This document shows, piece after piece, positions 2,653 through 56,497 of a stretch of 64,000 nucleotides of DNA. Source of the stretch: an uncultured virus (IMG/VR IMGVR_UViG_3300005193_000001) (taxonomy: Duplodnaviria; Heunggongvirae; Uroviricota; Caudoviricetes); the IMG/VR virus record IMGVR_UViG_3300005193_000001, positions 1 through 64,000 of that record; one strand, written 5' to 3'. The stretch's first letter is position 1; every line of letters begins with the position of its first letter. The notes below the pieces were generated by a model that was not told the origin of the DNA, searched no databases, and was given only the letters and a program-made list of their open reading frames with translations. The translations under genes were made by a program, and so were the position numbers.

Positions 2653-3024
2653 TCATCTGAAGAACCTGCGCAGGTACTTGCCGTACTCTCTGGAACGAAC
2701 TCGATTTTGAACGTAGTTCGCTGCATAATGAATGGTGGACAGAGCCAATTGTCGCTCCAGTCCCCGGTTCGTGGTTTCGTTGATTAGTTCCGGTTCTAGA
2801 CGACCATCAATAACGAAATTTCTGTTTAAAAGATCGGACGTGGCTCTCTGACAGAACGTGTTTGCGCTTTCGTTGTTTTCCAAAACCACGGCCACGTCGA
2901 AGACCCGAGAAACCACTACGGTGCTTTCTATTCGGCTGTAGGCTTCGGCCCAAAAATTCGAGATTTCCTTTTCGGGGTCCGCGTATTCGTTAACGTATTC
3001 AAAGCACTCGTCATAATTGGACAT
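2653..3024 (-). CDS. hypothetical protein
   Basis: ATG ORF in a tightly packed minus-strand operon, acidic composition. Confidence 0.6.
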   Translation of the reverse strand: MSNYDECFEYVNEYADPEKEISNFWAEAYSRIESTVVVSRVFDVAVVLENNESANTFCQRATSDLLNRNFVIDGRLEPELINETTNRGLERQLALSTIHYAANYVQNRVRSREYGKYLRRFFR

Positions 3025-3036
3025 TCAGTTGTTAGC

Positions 3037-7602: not shown

Positions 7603-7646
7603 TTAAACGGAACCGTGAACTTCCGGTTCCGTGAAGCACGTGTTAA
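7603..7646 (-). promoter_or_regulatory. putative early promoter TTAACA-N4-CTTCAC-GGAAC-N16-CGTTTAA
   Basis: Repeated motif with fixed 16-nt spacer found upstream of several genes. Confidence 0.65.
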
Positions 7647-14025: not shown

Positions 14026-16824
14026 TCAAGAAAAGTCGAAGAAACGACCCGCCGCTTTCTTTTTTGCCGATGGAAATTCCCAATCGATGGCGGCGTAAAT
14101 GTCCTCCAGCTTCGATTTCAGAACCTTTTCATACATCTTTTCGTAATCGGCGTATTCTCTCGCGAATTCCAAGATCTCGTCGGGGTTATCCATGGGACGA
14201 ATTCCAAGCTGTTCAAGCCCCAAAGCGTTCTTTTGGAGGTAAACCCAGCGTATCTTGTCGCCGTTTTCTATCTTTTCGTTTTGTTGCTGAATATCGAAAT
14301 ACTTGAGTAGGTCGTTGTACGCGAGAGCCGACTTGAAGTGCACTTGTGCGCCTTTTTCGTACTTGGCTATCGTATCCGTTTGCCATTTCTCCAACTCTCC
14401 GACTCCCGTAGGGTTAGCGATCCGATCAATAGGCTCTTCTCGGAGCTTGCTTTCGAAATCTAGGATAATGTCGTCAATTTCCTCCTTGTCGGCTCCTCGA
14501 AGGATAGAGTTCACAACGTCCTTCATGACCTCGTTGAAGGCTGGAGGGAAGTCGCTGCGCACGAGCTCGATGCCTTTGGCCTTCAGCTTCGATACGTCTT
14601 TGCCCTCGTCGTTCACGACCCACATCGCGTACCGCTTTTTGACCTCCCACCAAAGCCCACGAGAAGCTACAAGTTCCTGTTTGATCTCGAACCAGTGACC
14701 TTCTCGTGGCACGTTCAAGATCTGTTCTGCATAGTAGTTGTAGGACTTGTTGATGTAGTCCTCGACTTCTTTCGCCTGTTCGATGGAGTCGGAAATGACG
14801 TGGTCCTGATCCGCGTTTCCGGTGTCGTAATCGAGAAGAGGAATCGCGGAGTAGAAAACGCTATCAGTGTCGGAATAGATGCAAGATTGAAGCACGTCTC
14901 CACATTCGGTATTGACGGCGTTCTTGCTGTAGAACTGATCTCCAACCTTTTGCGTGTACTTGATGGTGGAAACTCCGGTGGCTGTGGTAGCCTCAGCGTT
15001 ATCAATGTCGTAAAACCGAAAGACTGGAAGACCGAGAACTCCGTAAATGGAGTTAATAAGAATCTTTCGGTTGTGCTGTTGGCTGTCGTAGTACTCGGCG
15101 TCTTCTTCTCTACCCTCTTCTTCTGCTTTGTTTCTGAGCTTCTTATATTTTTGCCTATTGCTGAACCATTCTTCCAGGATCTCGGGAATAACGCCCCTCT
15201 TGTCTCTTCTATAAACCGCCCCATTCGCTGCGACTTGATAATCGTTGCTCCGAAGCCAACTCTCGATTTCGGACACGGAATCAAACGTCCTGTAAGCATC
15301 AACGTCGAATATCCAGACCTTATAGTCCTTGTCGGGCTTCTCCGCGAGATCGTAGGCGTCCCAACCGTAGATCTTCGCCACTTTGGTCTCCGGGCTGATG
15401 TTCAGGCTCATAATAATGCAGGGGTACATTGACGTTAAGTCGAGATCAAAGATCCAATCGTAAGTCCCCGGCGTTGGTTGCTGGACGTAAGCACCAGAGA
15501 ATTCGAGCCCAACCTCCGCCTCGTCTTCGGCTGCGAAATCGATTGGGTCTTCGAGTATGAAAGTGTCTTTTTCTACATCGACGTACCTGACTTTCCCTTT
15601 CGTGGTCTTGGTAGAAGCTTTCGGAACGCCAATCGTCCCTTTCTTCGGAACGTCGTTGTGAATATCGTCCTTAGCTTTGATCTCGTTGGAGCCCATGGGG
15701 TGGTAGCCATCGACCTCAAACTTCGTTCGCCCCCTCTTTTTGTCCGGGGCTACGACGTCGTTCCGGTGAAGCCTTTTAAGAATAGCTCCCTCAATGAACC
15801 TGCTCGACATGTAAACGTCTTCGTAAGGGATGTAGCCAAGGTGAGAAATGAAACGAGCCATTTCGATAAATCCGAACTTCTCGTCGAGATCGGCTACAAG
15901 CTGAACGTCTTCGAAGTTGTAATCGATGAAGGTATCGATATCGAGCCTCTTGAGATCGTCAAGGTCCCGGACAACCTCGCCATCGACTTTCATGCCTTCA
16001 TAATCGATCTTGCCCCTACCAAGTTCCTCTCTCGCTACGTGGTCTAAGGCATAACTCGGCTGCTCCGAAAACGTGAAGTTCCGATAAATCTTGAGGTAGT
16101 CGAGACTGGATATTCCAGCGAACGTATAATCCTCATACTCGTTGTTTCGTTCGTTGTATCGAACCTTCTCGATGGGAGACAACTTGTTAGCCATCGATTC
16201 TCCCAACACCTTCTTGATGCGTCCGTAAAGGTAAGGCTCGTCAAATTCGGTGTTGTTCCAACCAGAAATGATGGTGGGGTCAGCCTCTCTCCAATGCCTA
16301 ACGATTCCGCGAAGAAGATCGGGTTCGGAATCGAAGGTCTCGATATCAACGTCTTTTCTGTGAGGATCCTCGATTTCGCCCTTCTCGTCCAGGATGAGTA
16401 CGGCTTTCTTGTCTCGTGCCTCGTCGTAATAAGCGACTGAAGTGACCTTCTCTTCTACATCTTCGGGGTCCGGAAAGCCGCCCTCAGAAGCGACCTCAAT
16501 GTCGTAAAATAGCTTTCTGTGGCCCGTCGATGGTTCGTGATCATCGTAGAGATCGGTGAGAACGCGGGTAGTAATGGGAACGTCGGATTCTTGAATCGCG
16601 TCTTCCCCGTAAACGTCCTCCAACTCCTTCTTCTTCGACCAACTCATTTCGGACTTCGGGATCTTCATGACGGGCTCCCCCCACATAGTCTCATGCTCCC
16701 CGAACTCGTTCTTAACGAAAACGTAGTTGGGGAAATCGAATCGCTTATATCCGGCTTCGTCGTCCCAAAGATGAACAGTGGGCTCGTCGCTCCATTTGTC
16801 TTCTACATAGATGTTTTGGTAAAT
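14026..16824 (-). CDS. family B DNA polymerase (T4 gp43-like), probable ATT start at 16824
   Basis: YDIE, ISGWN..FD.PY exonuclease motifs; DLTSMYP, KILINSIYG, YSDTDS, KKRY polymerase motifs; frame extends 46 codons upstream of the annotated Met. Confidence 0.95.
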   Translation of the reverse strand: MYQNIYVEDKWSDEPTVHLWDDEAGYKRFDFPNYVFVKNEFGEHETMWGEPVMKIPKSEMSWSKKKELEDVYGEDAIQESDVPITTRVLTDLYDDHEPSTGHRKLFYDIEVASEGGFPDPEDVEEKVTSVAYYDEARDKKAVLILDEKGEIEDPHRKDVDIETFDSEPDLLRGIVRHWREADPTIISGWNNTEFDEPYLYGRIKKVLGESMANKLSPIEKVRYNERNNEYEDYTFAGISSLDYLKIYRNFTFSEQPSYALDHVAREELGRGKIDYEGMKVDGEVVRDLDDLKRLDIDTFIDYNFEDVQLVADLDEKFGFIEMARFISHLGYIPYEDVYMSSRFIEGAILKRLHRNDVVAPDKKRGRTKFEVDGYHPMGSNEIKAKDDIHNDVPKKGTIGVPKASTKTTKGKVRYVDVEKDTFILEDPIDFAAEDEAEVGLEFSGAYVQQPTPGTYDWIFDLDLTSMYPCIIMSLNISPETKVAKIYGWDAYDLAEKPDKDYKVWIFDVDAYRTFDSVSEIESWLRSNDYQVAANGAVYRRDKRGVIPEILEEWFSNRQKYKKLRNKAEEEGREEDAEYYDSQQHNRKILINSIYGVLGLPVFRFYDIDNAEATTATGVSTIKYTQKVGDQFYSKNAVNTECGDVLQSCIYSDTDSVFYSAIPLLDYDTGNADQDHVISDSIEQAKEVEDYINKSYNYYAEQILNVPREGHWFEIKQELVASRGLWWEVKKRYAMWVVNDEGKDVSKLKAKGIELVRSDFPPAFNEVMKDVVNSILRGADKEEIDDIILDFESKLREEPIDRIANPTGVGELEKWQTDTIAKYEKGAQVHFKSALAYNDLLKYFDIQQQNEKIENGDKIRWVYLQKNALGLEQLGIRPMDNPDEILEFAREYADYEKMYEKVLKSKLEDIYAAIDWEFPSAKKKAAGRFFDFS

Positions 16825-16857
16825 GGTATACCACCTCTCTTTTTTGAAATGCTATTG

Positions 16858-16885
16858 AAAAACGAAGAAAAGACAGCCTCGTTCC
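16858..16885 (-). promoter_or_regulatory. GGAAC-N16-CGTTTTT promoter upstream of the DNA polymerase
   Basis: Same motif and spacing as the other copies. Confidence 0.55.
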
Positions 16886-16893
16886 GGGCTTCA

Positions 16894-17397
16894 CTAAAGC
16901 TTAAAATCGAAGTGTTGCATAGAAGATCCAGAAGGCCGAAACCTGAGACAATCGAAGGTCAATCGCCTTCCGATCTTGTCTCGAATCTGAGAAGTGTAAT
17001 CCTCGCCTCGCCCTCTCTTCAAATACCCGACAGTTAAATGAGGGCTGTAGTCGTCATGCTCGTTCGTGTGTGGAAAAGAAGAAAAGACGCGATTTAACTG
17101 CCTAAGCTTATCGGATTCAATGTCGTATTTCAGAACGTCGTAGTCCGGGTTGTTATCGAAGGTGGAAGCACCTACAATTTTGATCTCGACAGGTTCTCTT
17201 ACTGACTTGCAAATTCGCCCCACGAGATCGGAATGAACCTCGTCGTGAAGGCCGTACAGAACAGTTACGTGCGGGTTGACTTCGAGACCCGAGTTCTCTT
17301 CTTCGCTGTACACGTCTTCCCTGTCGATACAAGAAAGAACGCGACTCCACCCGTCAGGCCATCCACTAGCCATGACGCATCCGTAATCGTAAGCCAT
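16894..17397 (-). CDS. 2H phosphoesterase, T4 57B/Acb1-like
   Basis: Two HxT motifs (PHVTVLYG, PHLTVGY) in a 167-aa protein. Confidence 0.75.
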   Translation of the reverse strand: MAYDYGCVMASGWPDGWSRVLSCIDREDVYSEEENSGLEVNPHVTVLYGLHDEVHSDLVGRICKSVREPVEIKIVGASTFDNNPDYDVLKYDIESDKLRQLNRVFSSFPHTNEHDDYSPHLTVGYLKRGRGEDYTSQIRDKIGRRLTFDCLRFRPSGSSMQHFDFKL

Positions 17398-17400
17398 AGG

Positions 17401-17937
17401 TCATTCTTCGGAGTTGTTGCGATTGGGATAAACCACCTTCATGCCTCCAGAATCAGTGCGAACGTATCGCTTTTCTTCGTCGTCTGGGGAATTGGGTTTG
17501 TTGTTGCTTTTTTGGCGTCGAGGACCGGACTTTGACTTTCCGGTATAAATGCCTTTGTGGTCGCTGTCCGTACTTTTGCGCTGCTGCGCCGCATCGTCGA
17601 AGCCTTCTGGAGTAGGGGGCTGGACGAATCCGTCGTCAGGCTCCGCGCCCTGTTCCGGGTCAAACTCGTCGGTATCCGGAAAATCGGACTCGTCAGGAAG
17701 AAACTCGTCTTCATCAAGCTCGAAGCCTCCTTCGGCATCTGCTTGATCAATTTCGTCCAGAAGGTCGTCGATTTCCTCCGAAGAATCGGTGTCCTGCTCT
17801 CGGAAGTGAGTCTGCGTGTGTTCTTCGCACTTTTCCAAGATGTCCTCTCTTTTAGCGTAGGAAGGTTTAATCCAATTGCCAGTGAGAGGATTAAGTACAC
17901 GTCCGGTGTCGGGATCTCGCTCAGGATATTCGCTCAT
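17401..17937 (-). CDS. hypothetical acidic protein
   Basis: N-terminal RVLNPLTGNWIK followed by a low-complexity acidic region. Confidence 0.55.
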   Translation of the reverse strand: MSEYPERDPDTGRVLNPLTGNWIKPSYAKREDILEKCEEHTQTHFREQDTDSSEEIDDLLDEIDQADAEGGFELDEDEFLPDESDFPDTDEFDPEQGAEPDDGFVQPPTPEGFDDAAQQRKSTDSDHKGIYTGKSKSGPRRQKSNNKPNSPDDEEKRYVRTDSGGMKVVYPNRNNSEE

Positions 17938-21716: not shown

Positions 21717-24158
21717 TCAGGACTTCTCTATGAGAGACTGAGAACCCTCGTTCTCGTTCATAGATTTGTCCATCTTGTACTCTTGATAGGCTTTTGAAAT
21801 TTCCTCTCTCTGTGCTTGACCCTCGCTTTTGTTCATCTTCGCCAACAGACGCTTACCCTTGTCGCTTTCGGGGTCGAGAACGTTGATGGTCCCGGTAGAG
21901 GTGGACATGAGAGCGGGATAAGTCTTGCCATCGGGACCGAATCTAGACTTGGCGACGTGAATCCTGGCAGTATCGGTAAGCTTGTTCGTGTCCGTGCGAG
22001 CCAAGGTAGCCATAAAGTCCGCGTTCATAGCCTTCTTCCAACTATCCGCGATTCTATCTTTCTTGACGATCTTGTCCCCAACGGCTGATCTCTGCGTCTG
22101 AGAAACGGTCCATATAGGAACTCCGAGTTCACCTCCGAGACGCCTGAGGTCTTTGTAAATGTTGCCCATCGTCCCATAGGCGTCGTCCTCTCTTTGCGTC
22201 TTCAAAGGCCGAAGAAGGTCGGCATAGTCAAGGATAACGAGATCCGGCTTCCACTTCACAACACCCATTCTTTCAAGATGGGAATAGAGCGTTTGAGTTG
22301 TGGCACCGTTAGCTGGCCAGTGTTGGATGGAGACGTTTCCCGGCACGAATTTAAGTGCCTCCTTCACGTCTTCTTTATTCTCTGTAATCTCGTTCGGTGG
22401 ATGACCGGAGAAGATAGAATCGTATCGAAACCCGGTCTGCTTCTCCGAAAGCTCCAAGGTGTAATGAACGACCTTGAAGTCTTTTTTCATGGCTTCGGAG
22501 CCAATGTGCGAGAGAGCCCAAGTCTTCCCGGAGTTGTGGTGGACCGTGAAGTCGGCGGTCATGTACAGGTGGTCCCGGTCAAGCAGGAACCCGTAGTAGT
22601 CGCCGTGTCCCACGGGCTCGATGCTGAACCCGGTCCTGAGGCAGTTCTTCTCCGATTTCCTCTCCCGTGACTGCTTTCGTTCGAGTCTGCACAGCATGTC
22701 GTCGTCGATCCCGGTCACATATGCCCTGTAATACTCGCCGCCCCGGATATGTTTGGTTCCTCTGGACACCCGGTAGCCAAGGCTCCGTGCTATGAACGTC
22801 ACGTCGTCCGCCAACTTCTCGGACGCGGAGACGTAATCGTATCCGTTCTTGCTCAGGTGGGCGTCGGCGTCGAACAGGCCAGCAAGGAAGGTCCTTCTGA
22901 CTTCGGGGGAACCGTACTTGTACTTGTCCGGCACGAACTTGTCCTCGCTTCCTTTGCCGTAGAGCCCAAGGGTACGCACGCCATCGAGGACGGGGTCGCC
23001 CTTGTGGTCATTGGTGATAGGGACCACGTAGTTGCCATCGTCCCTCGTCTTAAACCCAACGTCCATACCGTGGTCGGCCTCGCAGTGCTCCATTAGATAG
23101 TCTCTAATGGTCTCGTCTCCCGTCGTGACGGAGAAGTTGTGACCCGTGAAGCAACCGTCACCGACCAGAAGGCCAATGAGGTAGGGGTCAAGCTCGTACT
23201 TGTAGTCCTCAGAACCCTCGAAGGTATCGACGGGCTTGCGGCGAAGCTTGTGGACATGCTGGAACTGGTTAGATTTCTCGATGTACTCGCCCACCGTCAC
23301 GTTCACCACACCACCTTTGCCGTGGCTGTATCCGTCGCTGCTGTTGACGAGCGAAAGCACATGGTCCTTGTTCACCACGAACGGCTCTCCACCACGGTTG
23401 GGCGTGATCTCGTACATCTGCTGCTCTCCCCGGCGAAGCTCCTTGACTTCTCTTGGACTGGAATCGGGTCCCATGAGCTTGTCACCGACCGCCACATTCT
23501 CGACCTTTTTGACTGTGCCGTCGTACATCATGATCTCCGTACCAGCGGCGTGACAGCCCGTGGCTCCCATAAGAACTCCGATCTCTCCCGGAGCAAGTCC
23601 TCCATCCAAAGCTTGATCGTCTAAAACTGGCCATCCAGTAGGTATCGTGTCACGGGCAACGCCTTCCATTCTGGAATCAACGTCCTCCATGTAGTCGTGA
23701 CCGACTTCTCGACTGACTCCAGCGGAAAGAGCTTCGTTAAACTTGGAGCGGATAGTTCCGTATTCTCCGGAATCAATCAGGGGGATGCAGTCCTGGACGG
23801 TCTTTCGAACCTTCTGCTGCTTGCAGAATTCGAGAAAATTCTCCTTCACCCAATCGAGGTCTGGAGATTTCTTTTTCTCCCAAGCCTTACGAAGATTCTC
23901 CATAATCGAAGCTTGCATGGAATCGGAAGGCACGGATTGGATTTCGGTCTGAAAATACTCAAGTTCCGGTACCTCCTTGTACTCTTCGTAGAATCGAAGT
24001 ACGCGACCTACAATCCACTGCTTTCCTTTCCCATCAAAATACTGCGGTTCTAAAATGTCAATGATTCGCTCCAGAAAAGCCTTGTCGGAAAGAATGGCTC
24101 CGATGGCCTTTATCTGAAACCGAGTGCCATATTTTTCTGACAGCTTTTGTTCACTCAT
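21717..24158 (-). CDS. replicative DNA helicase (DnaB/gp41-like) containing an intein
   Basis: IPTGW..LD...GGL..GE, Walker A GATG|SGKT split by an insert, HYTLE, ILDYADL, SQTQR, KSRFG. Confidence 0.93.
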   Translation of the reverse strand: MSEQKLSEKYGTRFQIKAIGAILSDKAFLERIIDILEPQYFDGKGKQWIVGRVLRFYEEYKEVPELEYFQTEIQSVPSDSMQASIMENLRKAWEKKKSPDLDWVKENFLEFCKQQKVRKTVQDCIPLIDSGEYGTIRSKFNEALSAGVSREVGHDYMEDVDSRMEGVARDTIPTGWPVLDDQALDGGLAPGEIGVLMGATGCHAAGTEIMMYDGTVKKVENVAVGDKLMGPDSSPREVKELRRGEQQMYEITPNRGGEPFVVNKDHVLSLVNSSDGYSHGKGGVVNVTVGEYIEKSNQFQHVHKLRRKPVDTFEGSEDYKYELDPYLIGLLVGDGCFTGHNFSVTTGDETIRDYLMEHCEADHGMDVGFKTRDDGNYVVPITNDHKGDPVLDGVRTLGLYGKGSEDKFVPDKYKYGSPEVRRTFLAGLFDADAHLSKNGYDYVSASEKLADDVTFIARSLGYRVSRGTKHIRGGEYYRAYVTGIDDDMLCRLERKQSRERKSEKNCLRTGFSIEPVGHGDYYGFLLDRDHLYMTADFTVHHNSGKTWALSHIGSEAMKKDFKVVHYTLELSEKQTGFRYDSIFSGHPPNEITENKEDVKEALKFVPGNVSIQHWPANGATTQTLYSHLERMGVVKWKPDLVILDYADLLRPLKTQREDDAYGTMGNIYKDLRRLGGELGVPIWTVSQTQRSAVGDKIVKKDRIADSWKKAMNADFMATLARTDTNKLTDTARIHVAKSRFGPDGKTYPALMSTSTGTINVLDPESDKGKRLLAKMNKSEGQAQREEISKAYQEYKMDKSMNENEGSQSLIEKS
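22533..23555 (-). mobile_element. intein (341 aa) with LAGLIDADG homing endonuclease, inserted in the helicase P-loop
   Basis: Starts CHAAGT, ends VHHN followed by Ser; LIGLLVGDG and FLAGLFDADA blocks; visibly higher GC than the flanks. Confidence 0.93.
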
Positions 24159-27647: not shown

Positions 27648-27905
27648 TTAGTCTCCGCTCCGCCCAGACGTGGGTGGAACGGGGGTGCCATCGCTTTTGG
27701 GAAGTGAATCCGGCTTTTTGGGCTTATGTCCACCACGGTTAGTCGGATAGGCCCTCGTCGTGCGGTATTCAATGTGGCCGCACTTTACACAAGTTCTAAA
27801 CTGACAGCCCTTGTTTTCTTTGGGAGAAAGACCTTCCCAAACCGTGTACTGATGCCAACAGCCGTCAAATACCCAACCAGCGAAAGAAGAAAAGAAACTA
27901 CCCAT
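27648..27905 (-). CDS. hypothetical protein (C.H...RTC.KCG)
   Basis: Overlaps the IF1 stop codon. Confidence 0.5.
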   Translation of the reverse strand: MGSFFSSFAGWVFDGCWHQYTVWEGLSPKENKGCQFRTCVKCGHIEYRTTRAYPTNRGGHKPKKPDSLPKSDGTPVPPTSGRSGD

Positions 27906-28123
27906 TATGAATGTCGATAGGTGACGTACGCTTTGTCAAGGTCGTAAGGAGAGAATTCGAGAGTGACTTCGTCTCCGGGAAGAACGTCGATATGATTCCG
28001 TTTCATCTTTCCTGACAAAATTCCCAGGACCTCCTTACCATTAGAATTGACTTCAACCCTAAACTGCTGATTTGGAAGCTTTTTGAGGACTGTTCCTCGT
28101 TTTTCTATCTTGTCTTCTGACAT
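27905..28123 (-). CDS. infA: translation initiation factor IF-1
   Basis: 72 aa; G.V...LPN..FRV...SGKM..N.I.VLPGD.V..E.SPYDL. Confidence 0.92.
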   Translation of the reverse strand: MSEDKIEKRGTVLKKLPNQQFRVEVNSNGKEVLGILSGKMKRNHIDVLPGDEVTLEFSPYDLDKAYVTYRHS

Positions 28124-29613: not shown

Positions 29614-30930
29614 TCAAACGGCATCGGCCATCGTGGTGCCTCTGGAGGTCTTGACCTTCATTGTGTCGTCACTCATAACGTCGGTGGCTATCGATTTTAC
29701 TTTCTCCACCTCGTCTTCCGGACAATCAAAGAGGATAGAGTCGTAAGTGTAGAGAGAAGGAATCGACCTCATGTCCGAGAGCCGATTGAATATCTCCTTC
29801 ATCCGTTCCGTGTTATACTCGGTTTCGTAAGCCTGTATAGTATAGTTGAAGGCTTTAGCTGGGTTAAACCCATTTATCTTTGTTGCCGTTATTTGTCTTC
29901 TGTAAAGCGGAGTAGAAATCAACCCATATTCCTTGTACACGCTCCAAATATCTTCGGTCAGTTCTTTGACACCACGAAAGAAATCGAGTTCCAAGACTTC
30001 TTCGGGCATACCCCAAGGATTGTAAATCAGTCTGAAAGTAAGTTCTTTAGACTCTTTGTATTCTTCGTCGTTAAGCTTTTGCTTGTCGAAATAAAGGCGT
30101 CCGAGGTGCTTGTGAAAGCTATACTCGGGGGCGTCGTAATCGATAAGATTCGAAACGAGACGAAGATGAAATCCGTCGTAGTCCACGTTCAAGAGAACGC
30201 CGTCGTCAAACCTGCTAACAATCGCTTCCCTCTCTTCCGGGTCCAGAGCAGCGTAGTTCACACCGTGATTAGCGTTAGAGGGACGTCCGGTAGAGGTGTA
30301 GAAATTGTATTTAGAATAAACGAGATCGTCTTCGTCCAGAAGATCAAGTGGACCCAACCTGTCCTCGAAGACTTCGGGGTCCACGCGGGTACCGTGCCGT
30401 TCAAGACGAAAAAAGGTCTCCAGCATATCGCCATTGTATTTTCTGAATGGAGTCTTGTCTAATGCAGACCCGTCTTCGTCTAATATGCGTTCACACCTGT
30501 CTATGCGGTTCTGCGAAATCTCGGCCAACCTCATCAAAGGACGATGAAGATTCTTGGCGTCTCGGGGGAAGAGAGAAGGGGTCGAAAGTTCCGGTGGTTC
30601 GTTGTGCTGGAAGTAATAGAGAAGAGAACAGTCCACGAGATCGCGGAATGGAACTAAGTGAAGGATTCTCTTCTTGTTTAGACAGAACTTGTCGTCCCCG
30701 GTATTAAGTTCCAGCAGAAGCTTGGGATTTATGCAAGTAGCGTCGTTGTGGGCCACTGGTATCAAAGCTTCTCGGTTTCCCGCTCTTACCAACACAAAAC
30801 ACACGCTGGATTTGGCGGGGTCAACGTCACCACGAGTTTGAACGGCATCGAGAAATACTCGGCCATCGAAGCTTTCGTAGTGCTCCAGAAAGTCGTAGAA
30901 TTGCTCTTCTGTTTCAACCGTTTCTTTCAT
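29614..30930 (-). CDS. family A DNA polymerase-like protein (compact)
   Basis: TGRPSN, motif A VDYDGFHLRL, motif B SKELTFRLIY, FNYTIQAYE, motif C YTYDSILFD. Confidence 0.8.
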   Translation of the reverse strand: MKETVETEEQFYDFLEHYESFDGRVFLDAVQTRGDVDPAKSSVCFVLVRAGNREALIPVAHNDATCINPKLLLELNTGDDKFCLNKKRILHLVPFRDLVDCSLLYYFQHNEPPELSTPSLFPRDAKNLHRPLMRLAEISQNRIDRCERILDEDGSALDKTPFRKYNGDMLETFFRLERHGTRVDPEVFEDRLGPLDLLDEDDLVYSKYNFYTSTGRPSNANHGVNYAALDPEEREAIVSRFDDGVLLNVDYDGFHLRLVSNLIDYDAPEYSFHKHLGRLYFDKQKLNDEEYKESKELTFRLIYNPWGMPEEVLELDFFRGVKELTEDIWSVYKEYGLISTPLYRRQITATKINGFNPAKAFNYTIQAYETEYNTERMKEIFNRLSDMRSIPSLYTYDSILFDCPEDEVEKVKSIATDVMSDDTMKVKTSRGTTMADAV

Positions 30931-54567: not shown

Positions 54568-54595
54568 TTAAACGGAAAACACGTGTATACGTTCC
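54568..54595 (-). promoter_or_regulatory. GGAAC-N16-CGTTTAA promoter
   Basis: Exact match to the repeated motif. Confidence 0.65.
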
Positions 54596-56469: not shown

Positions 56470-56497
56470 TTAAACGTAAAGGGAACGGTCTTGTTCC
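56470..56497 (-). promoter_or_regulatory. GGAAC-N16-CGTTTAA promoter
   Basis: Exact match to the repeated motif. Confidence 0.65.

Follow-up and report, generated by a model that had tools for sequence, protein, structure and literature searches.

A phage family-B DNA polymerase gene probably starts at an AUU codon behind the only clear Shine-Dalgarno site of its genome

Introduction

The classic AUU-initiated genes are infC, encoding IF3, and pcnB of E. coli, and such starts render expression sensitive to discrimination by IF3. The gp43 polymerase of phages T4 and RB69 starts at AUG and is subject to an autogenous translational operator, an RNA hairpin bound by the polymerase. T4-like phages also carry free-standing homing endonucleases, the seg and mob genes. 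In the available part of one report, infC and pcnB are cited as AUU starts, and S. aureus AUU and AUA starts behind extended sites are given an output of ~10% of that of AUG (PMC13009471).

In this study, we examined the start of the DNA polymerase gene (polB) in a stretch of phage DNA of 64,000 nucleotides, here called the window; the phage with this polB is a large brine phage. A sequence-only reading of the window had proposed that polB initiates at AUU behind a strong Shine-Dalgarno sequence and that polymerase dosage is set translationally. No description of an AUU (ATT) start with such a layout in phages was found in the open-access literature.

Results

The polymerase frame and its start codon

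The features of the reading frame are as follows.

14026..16824, minus strand: family-B (T4 gp43-like) DNA polymerase gene at full length, read from the probable ATT start, 932 codons plus stop
16822..16824, minus strand: ATT, the probable initiation codon, aligned with the Met1 codon of relatives
16684..16686, minus strand: internal ATG (Met47), the start chosen by gene callers; the database copy P0001 begins MWGEP
16687..16821, minus strand: polB codons 2-46, missed by gene callers (YQNIYVEDKWSDEPTVHLWDDEAGYKRFDFPNYVFVKNEFGEHET), conserved and with third-position bias
16852..16854, minus strand: in-frame TAG closing the polB frame, 10 codons above the ATT

The called ORF (14026..16686, minus strand) encodes 886 aa from an ATG. 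The sequence-only reading was correct that the frame stays open above this Met, on the minus strand, to an ATT at 16824 and is closed by a TAG 10 codons higher. The 46 codons from the ATT (16824-16822) to the called ATG at 16686 contain no ATG, GTG or TTG, and all three are likewise absent from the nine codons between the TAG and the ATT (HFKKERWYT). Read from the ATT, polB gives a 100% match across residues 1-932 with no internal stop. It begins IYQNIYVED where relatives have MYQNIF or MYKNIY, and its homologues align from residue 1.

The product is a family-B polymerase by its matches to PF00136 DNA_pol_B (140.5 bits, E 9e-41) and PF03104 DNA_pol_B_exo1 (81.8 bits, E 6e-23; Pfam cut-off 23 for both). 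RB69 gp43 chains match it at E 1e-66 (phmmer), in an alignment that starts at query residue 62. FYDIEV, DLDLTSMYPC, KILINSIYG and YSDTDSVF, which we take to be Exo I (DIE), motif A (DxxSxYP), motif B (KxxxNSxYG) and motif C (DTDS), are all present in the translation and invariant across the alignment of relatives.

The codons that gene callers leave out look like coding sequence. Compared with relatives, codons 2-46 differ at 25-27 third positions, against 7-11 first and 9-14 second positions. Their coding score of 0.306 is the highest among 60 ORF leaders in the genome, where the gene-body mean is 0.183. Judged from these differences, the first 46 residues are evidently under purifying selection. 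The proteins P0002 (85% identical), P0010 and P0015 have likewise been called from an internal MWG, and P0013 from MWDDEE, as would be expected from the protein records if these genes too are without a canonical start. Gene callers thus drop 46 conserved residues from this polymerase and from its database relatives P0001, P0002, P0010 and P0015, and the same truncation must affect phylogenies and structure models built on this marker gene.

Start codons in relatives

Loci of relatives were found in IMG/VR by an alignment-based search; a single-protein locus search there returned no loci, and blastn with 16400-17400 against phage records returned no close DNA relatives. The ATT lines up precisely with Met1 (MYQNI/MYKNI) of the homologues, including the ATG of Mel-JY01 and LR756508.1 and the Met1 of MYQNIF/MYKNVF database proteins. 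The homologue N-terminus given in the earlier reading (MYQNIY...HLWDD..GY) agrees with both the proteins in databases and the loci.

The start codon of 67 distinct N-termini of relatives is ATG in 56, ATT in 7, GTG in 3 and TTG in 1; ATT is therefore recurrent, not universal. All seven ATT rows have an in-frame stop 2-15 codons upstream and no canonical start before the ATT. Their ORFs are complete to the stop in five cases (842-1303 codons) and run off the end of the locus in the other two (L003 and L016). A pattern scan of IMG/VR added 5 distinct ATT N-termini from 9 of 119 loci, so that ATT stands at the polB start codon in twelve distinct relatives overall. On the tree of the relatives, the number of ATT/ATG switches lies between 5 (starred branches) and 7. 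In this widespread family of phage polymerases, roughly a tenth of the distinct members use ATT. In the brine clade, all basal branches (the window, L003 and L016) have ATT.

A Shine-Dalgarno site in a site-poor genome

Two features lie just ahead of the ATT.

16831..16840, minus strand: Shine-Dalgarno sequence AGAGAGGTGG, core GAGGTG, 7-nt spacer to the ATT
16825..16832, minus strand: perfect palindrome GGTATACC between the Shine-Dalgarno sequence and the ATT

The strong Shine-Dalgarno sequence claimed by the earlier reading is present at 16840-16831, where AGAGAGGTGG is followed by TATACC and then by the ATT, i.e., the site ends 6 nt ahead of the codon. Its duplex with a generic anti-Shine-Dalgarno sequence (-12.3 kcal/mol) is the strongest among the 67 loci. 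The palindrome occurs at two sites genome-wide (~4 expected).

Most genes here indeed lack such a site: a Shine-Dalgarno 5-mer or longer precedes the first canonical start in 21 of 407 ORFs (5.2%), compared with 5.5% of 20,000 random places, i.e., without enrichment, and a 6-mer or longer is found at 1.6% of random places in the genome. Gene starts of the phage are A-rich and without Shine-Dalgarno sites, as in Bacteroidia. In this otherwise site-poor genome, polB carries the only clear site. The combination of a Shine-Dalgarno sequence with ATT, ATC, ATA or CTG occurs at 105 places, 14 of them without an upstream canonical start, and among these non-canonical candidates polB alone has a coding-like leader. 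ATT starts are therefore not routine in this genome.

Across the family, a 6-mer or longer is found in 5 of 7 ATT rows and in 0 of 56 ATG rows, and the median duplex energy is -9.9 kcal/mol for ATT versus -3.6 kcal/mol for ATG (Mann-Whitney p 5e-5, uncorrected for kinship). Of 5 independent pairs, 4 associate the site with ATT and none shows the reverse, which is not significant (sign test p 0.125). L091 (only a 4-mer) and L034 (a 5-mer) are ATT lineages with weaker sites. In this family, ATT nearly always comes with a strong ribosome-binding site, and does so in genomes otherwise devoid of them.

The locus has the anatomy described, and its ATT, homologous to Met1, recurs in relatives in association with a Shine-Dalgarno site. 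Because the codon is aligned to the Met1 of homologues, recurs at that position and is paired with a strong Shine-Dalgarno sequence, it is very likely the true start of polB, and the protein would have 932 residues, not 886. Initiation at AUU behind the site, the central claim of the sequence-only reading, is thus well supported by comparison with relatives.

The upstream region

Two further features lie above the in-frame TAG.

16861..16885, minus strand: GGAAC-N16-CGTT, candidate phage promoter, ending 36 nt before the ATT
16894..17397, minus strand: upstream gene, 2H phosphoesterase (2'-5' RNA ligase superfamily; Pfam PF13563, E 5e-8)

The motif GGAAC-N16-CGTT had been reported just upstream and is present at 16885-16861. 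It occurs 15 times in the genome and its N17 form 12 times, as against 1-9 times for each of the other spacings between 8 and 27. Of the 27 sites with N16 or N17, ten fall in non-coding DNA, several of them 17-44 nt ahead of gene starts. From this spacing-specific excess, the promoter call is plausible. In a search for a phage sigma factor for GGAAC...CGTT, Sigma70_r2 gave no match and r4_2 only a sub-threshold one (20.2 bits).

The 2H phosphoesterase gene lies in the polB frame, 69 nt upstream, in a spacer that holds the promoter-like motif. A frameshift or read-through from this gene into polB was considered on account of the shared frame and rejected, since TAG, TGA and TAG stand between the two. 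An out-of-frame ATG-TAG at 16808-16803 was set aside as well; relatives do not conserve it. An operator-like hairpin in the leader was also rejected: the 121-nt leader folds at -22.7 kcal/mol compared with a shuffle mean of -23.0 kcal/mol (z 0.09), and its centroid fold leaves the Shine-Dalgarno site largely open. There is therefore no operator-like structure in the leader in support of regulation.

Leaderless initiation at ATG was considered for the freshwater clade and rejected, as the conserved sequence before that ATG is the 3′ end of a 75-77-aa gene. This gene stops 2-7 nt before polB, which points to coupling rather than to a promoter.

Initiation factor and ribosomal protein genes of the phage

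One distant feature may bear on start-codon discrimination.

27905..28123, minus strand: phage IF-1 homologue, 72 aa (Pfam PF01176, E 2e-18)

The phage genome also encodes bS21 (43.6 bits, cut-off 27), and a search of the genome for IF3 found none. The ATT records G000, G001 and G002 contain IF1, and so does the ATG relative LR756508.1, which has bS21 as well; the ATG phage Mel-JY01 has bS21 and lacks IF1. A tie between ATT and the phage IF1 is thus unsupported by co-occurrence, with one ATG phage on either side. A look-up of IF1 homologues gave mostly viral clusters, one of them with 6291 members, 56% of them viral.

Discussion

Taken as a whole, the explanation that we favor, with a probability of roughly 0.8, is that a Shine-Dalgarno-placed AUU yields a 932-residue product and that the weak codon limits dosage. 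The message probably begins at GGAAC-N16-CGTT, ~30 nt upstream, and carries the genome's only clear Shine-Dalgarno sequence, which would place the 30S subunit on the AUU at 16824-16822. Initiator tRNA would then decode the AUU and give the 932-residue polymerase, the first 46 residues of which would form part of a conserved N-terminal domain. By analogy with infC, pcnB and cvfC1, the weak AUU may offset the strong site, so that synthesis of the polymerase would be low and sensitive to IF3-type proofreading of the start codon. Such an offset is a plausible reason for the ATT, and polymerase dosage would accordingly be set translationally through IF3/IF1 discrimination. Relatives with ATG would reach a comparable end without the site, mostly by abutting the stop of the upstream gene.

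One alternative is an artefact or a truncated protein. The ATT could be an assembly error for ATG, or the protein could start at the ATG at 16686, the codon that gene callers picked, with the 46 codons as a dead remnant. The comparison over the ATT is one of assembled contigs, not raw reads, but the region 16000-17500 is identical in contigs of two runs, possibly the source, with depths of 18 and 11.6. A 281-nt contig from another study (~92% identical) has no listed change within 16794-16867, where the ATT lies ~30 nt from the contig end and 3 of the 22 differences are unlisted. None of the runs recorded as RNA contains the polB start region; X3 and X4, though labelled metatranscriptomic, probably consist of DNA, and the coverage of X3 is limited to 16397-16569. 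A sequencing error, which the earlier reading had named as a concern, is unlikely given the identical contigs and the ATT at the same codon in independent relatives, twelve of them distinct. The 46 codons moreover bear the marks of purifying selection and the top coding score, and the ATG at 16686 has neither a preceding Shine-Dalgarno site nor a gap. This alternative is largely refuted and we regard it as very improbable. It is also improbable, though less extremely so, that the phage IF1 (and bS21) remodel ribosomes such that expression of the one gene that combines AUU with a Shine-Dalgarno site is started or stopped at a given moment. The genome does encode IF1 and bS21 and no IF3, and its A-rich gene starts without Shine-Dalgarno sites are Bacteroidia-like by the available part of PMC9976891. 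That part also describes bS21-lacking ribosomes of F. johnsoniae that read strong sites, with IF1 and IF3 affecting formation of the complex on the rpsU message (PMC9976891), and entry of phage bS21 into host ribosomes is proposed in the accessible portion of PMC9723584. Against this, the presence of IF1 and bS21 does not follow ATT, LR756508.1 and Mel-JY01 both being ATG phages, and IF1 homologues are common in viruses. We consider it just as doubtful that, in a Bacteroidota-like host with Shine-Dalgarno-blind ribosomes, the polB site and AUU form a switch for bS21/IF1-remodelled ribosomes only. If true, the phage's hold on the 30S platform would set the timing of replication enzyme synthesis, in a viral counterpart of the rpsU autoregulation of Flavobacteria.

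A more serious contender, although still unlikely, is that the ATT is mainly a hitch-hiker. Free-standing homing endonucleases would home above the polB start and co-convert the flank, the cassette bringing its own Shine-Dalgarno sequence and an ATG-to-ATT change that perhaps spoils the putative target of the enzyme; the window allele would descend from one whose endonuclease gene has since been lost, its ATT tolerated and not selected for dosage. An endonuclease gene lies directly upstream of polB in the relatives L019, L046, L119, L017 and L052. NUMOD3-motif genes stand in this position in two ATT loci (L019 and L046) and two ATG loci (L017 and L052). L019 and L046 belong to different deep clades and their endonucleases have a common C-terminal domain. 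Homology within the sister pairs L019/L020 and L046/L039 stops exactly at the start codon. L119 shares with L046 195 of 200 nt upstream (the 3′ end of the endonuclease gene and the Shine-Dalgarno sequence) but 143 of 200 nt of polB, and its polB matches that of L036 and L041, two ATG loci with unrelated upstream DNA, at 178 of 200 positions. The first 46 residues of L019 match L017 and not its whole-gene sister L020, in what looks like a conversion tract, and the junction GAGGTGAT(T/C)AAAA-ATT is nearly identical in L003, without an endonuclease gene, and L019, with one. From these sequences, the endonuclease cassette evidently carries the Shine-Dalgarno sequence and ATT between subclades of the freshwater relatives. 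This movement provides a non-regulatory reason for the patchy spread of ATT, and since that spread is at least in part horizontal, the recurrence of ATT cannot be taken to show that a weak start was selected repeatedly. The window itself, however, has no endonuclease gene adjoining polB; its neighbor is the 2H phosphoesterase, with the promoter-like motif in the spacer. ATT without a visible endonuclease gene is found in the window, L003, L016, L034, L091, L129, L131 and L170, some of them with only 172-200 nt upstream, and ATG is kept in two of the four endonuclease-adjacent alleles. As the basal branches of the brine clade all have ATT, the codon may predate the endonuclease in L019.

The movement of the cassette between subclades suggests that an essential gene can have its translation start rewritten by a selfish element next to it. 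To our knowledge, no endonuclease gene has so far been described that alters the start codon of such a neighbor and supplies it with a new ribosome-binding site. The close sisters L019/L020 and L046/L039, which differ only in the layout of the start, are a natural experiment on codon versus ribosome-binding strength.

Comparison with known systems

The seg and mob genes of T4-like phages resemble the polB junction of the relatives in that an endonuclease gene lies between conserved genes and the flank is co-converted; in the window, no endonuclease gene adjoins polB. The T4/RB69 gp43 system concerns the same enzyme family and would serve the same end, in that polymerase synthesis is limited at translation initiation, but its operator differs from the leader of this phage, which has no significant structure (z 0.09). 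In infC and pcnB, as here, an AUU stands behind a Shine-Dalgarno sequence; the weak codon limits output and makes it subject to IF3 discrimination, as it may do here. The gene here differs in that it encodes a phage replicative polymerase, without an autoregulatory logic like that of IF3 sensing its own level, in that the surrounding phage genome has no Shine-Dalgarno sites, and in that relatives toggle between ATT and ATG.

The S. aureus genes cvfC1 (AUU), ccpN and infC (AUA) combine, according to the part of the report available, a conserved non-canonical start with an unusually strong Shine-Dalgarno sequence, as does polB here (PMC13009471). They belong to a Firmicute in which, by the same partial source, ~90% of expressed genes use Shine-Dalgarno sequences, whereas here the site is the exception (PMC13009471). 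The flavobacterial rpsU, whose extended Shine-Dalgarno sequence is read by bS21-lacking ribosomes, has a lone strong site as polB does; unlike polB, its start codon is normal and its own product is the factor sensed (PMC9976891). The site-poor, A-rich gene starts of the phage suggest a possible link between this system and its host.

Results

The virus record (263,015 bases, of which the window is bases 1-64000) is rated complete by CheckV, and DNA of the window occurs in metagenome runs from brine and hypersaline lakes. T4-like replication and tail proteins are encoded here, including a family-B polymerase, ribonucleotide reductase, an intein-bearing DnaB helicase, RecA and a gp32-like protein, along with a baseplate protein, a tail sheath, an IF-1 homologue and DnaJ. 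The polymerase gene, polB, lies on the minus strand, and gene callers and a mechanical ORF list both start it at ATG 16686 (886 aa). Above this internal ATG (Met47 hereafter) the frame is open as far as TAG 16854-16852 (minus strand), running through HFKKERWYT, ATT (16824-16822) and YQNIYVEDKWSDEPTVHLWDDEAGYKRFDFPNYVFVKNEFGEHET to Met47, and no ATG, GTG or TTG occurs in frame between the TAG and Met47. A sequence-only reading had proposed that polB initiates at this ATT; its statements about the sequence were all correct when the frame was re-read. The elements ahead of the ATT are as follows.

16894-17397, minus strand: 2H phosphoesterase, the gene preceding polB
16885-16861, minus strand: GGAAC-N16-CGTT, ending 36 nt before the ATT
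16840-16831, minus strand: Shine-Dalgarno sequence AGAGAGGTGG, with 6 nt between its end and the ATT

An 8-nt perfect palindrome, GGTATACC (16825-16832, minus strand), occupies the interval from the Shine-Dalgarno site to the ATT; it has just two sites in the genome against about four expected. The phosphoesterase weakly resembles the anti-CBASS protein Acb1 (20.1 bits, under the cut-off); its homologue at the related locus L020 scores 35.5 bits, above the cut-off of 27. Elsewhere in the replication module, the DnaB-type helicase (21717-24158, minus strand) is split by an intein carrying a LAGLIDADG homing endonuclease (Hom_end_hint, LAGLIDADG_3), and inteins also occur in several relatives' polymerases (proteins P0004, P0012, P0014 and P0016; loci L017, 1286 aa, and L019, 1303 aa). 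A 438-aa ORF (29614-30930, minus strand), a would-be second polymerase-like gene of the module, matches a family-A DNA polymerase palm just below the cut-off (33.9 versus 34.3 bits).

The pattern of substitution indicates that codons 2-46 evolve as coding sequence, with 25-27 third-position, 7-11 first-position and 9-14 second-position differences, and 11-18 synonymous codon changes, from six brine-clade relatives. The polB leader also has the top coding score (0.306 per codon; gene-body mean 0.183, sd 0.146) among 60 genome ORF leaders of at least 20 codons. An assembly error at the ATT is unlikely, as identical contigs from two runs, possibly the source, agree over 16000-17500 at depths of 18 and 11.6; a contig from another study spans the site as well, though it counts weakly because the ATT is close to its end.

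The closest GenBank phages are Microcystis phage Mel-JY01 and the uncultured phage LR756508.1; in these two polB opens with ATG TAT AAA AAT ATC and ATG TAT AAA AAC ATC TAT, respectively, and the ATT aligns codon for codon with each ATG. Homologous database proteins (52-64% identity) begin MYQNIF, MYKNVF or MAYQNIF. Annotated starts at an internal MWG (P0002, P0010, P0015 and the window's own entry, P0001) or MWDDEE (P0013) are the pattern expected if these relatives also lack a normal start. A locus search by a 12-protein alignment gave 13 loci from IMG/VR and 79 from metagenome contigs; the tblastn match reached query residue 1 in 80 loci, including the window and the two GenBank phages, and these collapsed on the first 100 residues to 67 distinct N-termini. 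Codon 1 is ATG in 56 of the 67, ATT in seven, GTG in three and TTG in one. All seven ATT N-termini have an in-frame stop 2-15 codons upstream without a canonical start between, and five of the seven ORFs are complete to the stop (842-1303 codons), L003 and L016 extending past the locus ends. When IMG/VR was searched with a degenerate DNA pattern for ATT-Tyr-Gln-Asn-Ile, at least 119 loci matched; among the matches listed, at least nine loci (at least five distinct sequences) are further ATT-started N-termini of this polymerase family, and none of those nine has a canonical start upstream of the ATT. The alignment with Met1, the recurrence of ATT in relatives and the coding behavior of codons 2-46 thus support AUU initiation of polB, to which we assign a probability of roughly nine in ten.

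As the earlier reading had held, most genes here lack a Shine-Dalgarno site. In 407 non-overlapping ORFs of the whole genome, scored for a consensus match lying 3-12 nt upstream of the first canonical start (which sometimes differs from the true one), a 5-mer or longer precedes 21 (5.2%) versus 5.5% of 20,000 random places, and a 6-mer or longer precedes six versus a random rate of 1.6%; such sites are therefore unenriched in this genome. Upstream regions are A-rich instead (34-41% A from -19 to -5), and against this background the polB site (GAGGTG, 7-nt spacer) is exceptional. Across the polymerase family, a strong Shine-Dalgarno site accompanies a weak start codon: a 6-mer or longer is found in 5/7 ATT rows, in the one TTG row and in none of the 56 ATG rows. 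Median duplex energy with a generic anti-Shine-Dalgarno sequence is -9.9 kcal/mol for ATT versus -3.6 for ATG (Mann-Whitney p 5e-5, uncorrected for kinship), and the window's -12.3 kcal/mol is the strongest of all rows. On a quick IQ-TREE tree (67 rows, 838 columns, residue 1 masked), ATT requires five changes on starred branches and seven on the best tree; the site goes with ATT in four of five independent ATT/ATG pairs and the opposite holds in none, too few pairs for the sign test (p 0.125). In the ATG relatives polB mostly abuts the stop of the upstream gene, with many gaps of 0-7 nt, which suggests that coupling to that gene replaces the Shine-Dalgarno site.

In the marine subclade polB comes after a class II ribonucleotide reductase; there, TTG/ATT starts have Shine-Dalgarno-like TAAGGAG or GAGGT (L089/L093 start; L129, L131, L170) and ATG neighbors have no such sites. 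In the ATT locus L034 (region 2931-3030), a 74-nt insert stands where its sister has an ATG junction; the insert contains an upstream ORF, Lys-rich and 31 codons long, which begins where the ancestral ATG stood and terminates, in a different frame, with a TAA within polB codons 5-6.

The promoter that had been placed just upstream is present as a motif, and its function is likely but inferred. GGAAC...CGTT has 15 genome sites with an N16 spacing and 12 with N17, versus 1-9 with every other spacing from 8 to 27, and 10 of the 27 N16/N17 sites are non-coding, several lying 17-44 nt ahead of gene starts. This spacing-specific excess and the enrichment in non-coding DNA ahead of genes make it a credible phage promoter, of ECF-like shape, with further examples in the window.

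54571-54595: GGAAC-N16/17-CGTT
56473-56497: GGAAC-N16/17-CGTT
7606-7630, minus strand: GGAAC-N16/17-CGTT

Transcription from the polB copy would yield a leader of about 30 nt, whose fold is not significant (z 0.09). A search of the phage for a sigma factor gave no Sigma70_r2 match and just a sub-threshold r4_2 match (genome record G000, 177464-177574).

Discussion

The sequence-only reading had also suggested a tie between the ATT start and the phage's own IF1. The phage encodes IF1 and the ribosomal protein bS21, and no IF3 was found in its genome.

27905-28123, minus strand: IF-1 homologue, 72 aa (PF01176, E 2e-18)
G000:C1:99860-100018, outside the window, and locus L102 1444-1686, both minus strand: bS21, 80-aa ORF (PF01165, 43.6 bits, cut-off 27)

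The nearest Atlas cluster of the IF-1 has 6291 members, 56% viral. IF1 is found alongside ATT (the L003 and L004 records) and equally in the ATG relative LR756508.1, and was not found in the ATG phage Mel-JY01; bS21 is in both ATG phages. Co-occurrence therefore shows no specific link to ATT. A functional interplay is possible, if speculative, where the host's ribosomes disregard Shine-Dalgarno sites (PMC9976891, PMC9723584).

The ATT and its Shine-Dalgarno site could have hitch-hiked with an endonuclease gene at the polB junction. In two tight sister pairs, L019 (ATT)/L020 (ATG) and L046 (ATT)/L039 (ATG), homology ends exactly at the start codon, and the gene directly upstream in L019 and L046 carries a NUMOD3 motif and a common C-terminal nuclease-like domain; L017 and L052, however, retain ATG with endonuclease genes of the Vsr/DUF559 type at this junction. 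The 200 nt upstream of polB in L119 (endonuclease 3′ end and Shine-Dalgarno site) are identical to L046 at 195/200 positions versus only 143/200 in polB, which instead matches the ATG loci L036 and L041 at 178/200, and their upstream DNA is unrelated. Endonuclease gene, site and ATT thus travel together as a mobile cassette in this freshwater group, and part of the recurrence of ATT is horizontal spread and not repeated selection. In the window, however, no endonuclease gene adjoins polB, the 2H phosphoesterase being upstream, and the basal brine-clade branches (the window, L003 and L016) are all ATT without one; for this phage hitch-hiking is therefore at most history. Separately, the first 46 polB residues of L019 (3001-3138) match L017 (both VWLWDDEEGMNK) and not the whole-gene sister L020, which looks like a gene-conversion tract beside endonuclease genes.

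An AUU start with a strong Shine-Dalgarno site is already known, and a phage replicative polymerase is a new case, distinguished by an unusually rich comparative record; our searches of the open-access literature turned up no account of a phage polymerase initiated at AUU/ATT. Among established AUU-start cases are infC and pcnB, which are policed by IF3. In S. aureus, according to one study, output from AUU/AUA starts behind extended Shine-Dalgarno sites is about 10% of that from AUG, and IF3 polices these starts (PMC13009471). By analogy, the strong site and weak codon may tune polymerase output in the brine phage, the weak AUU offsetting a strong site in a site-poor genome so that polymerase synthesis would be kept low. 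Synthesis of the T4 polymerase is held down via an RNA operator; the end would be the same in both phages, but the means differ.
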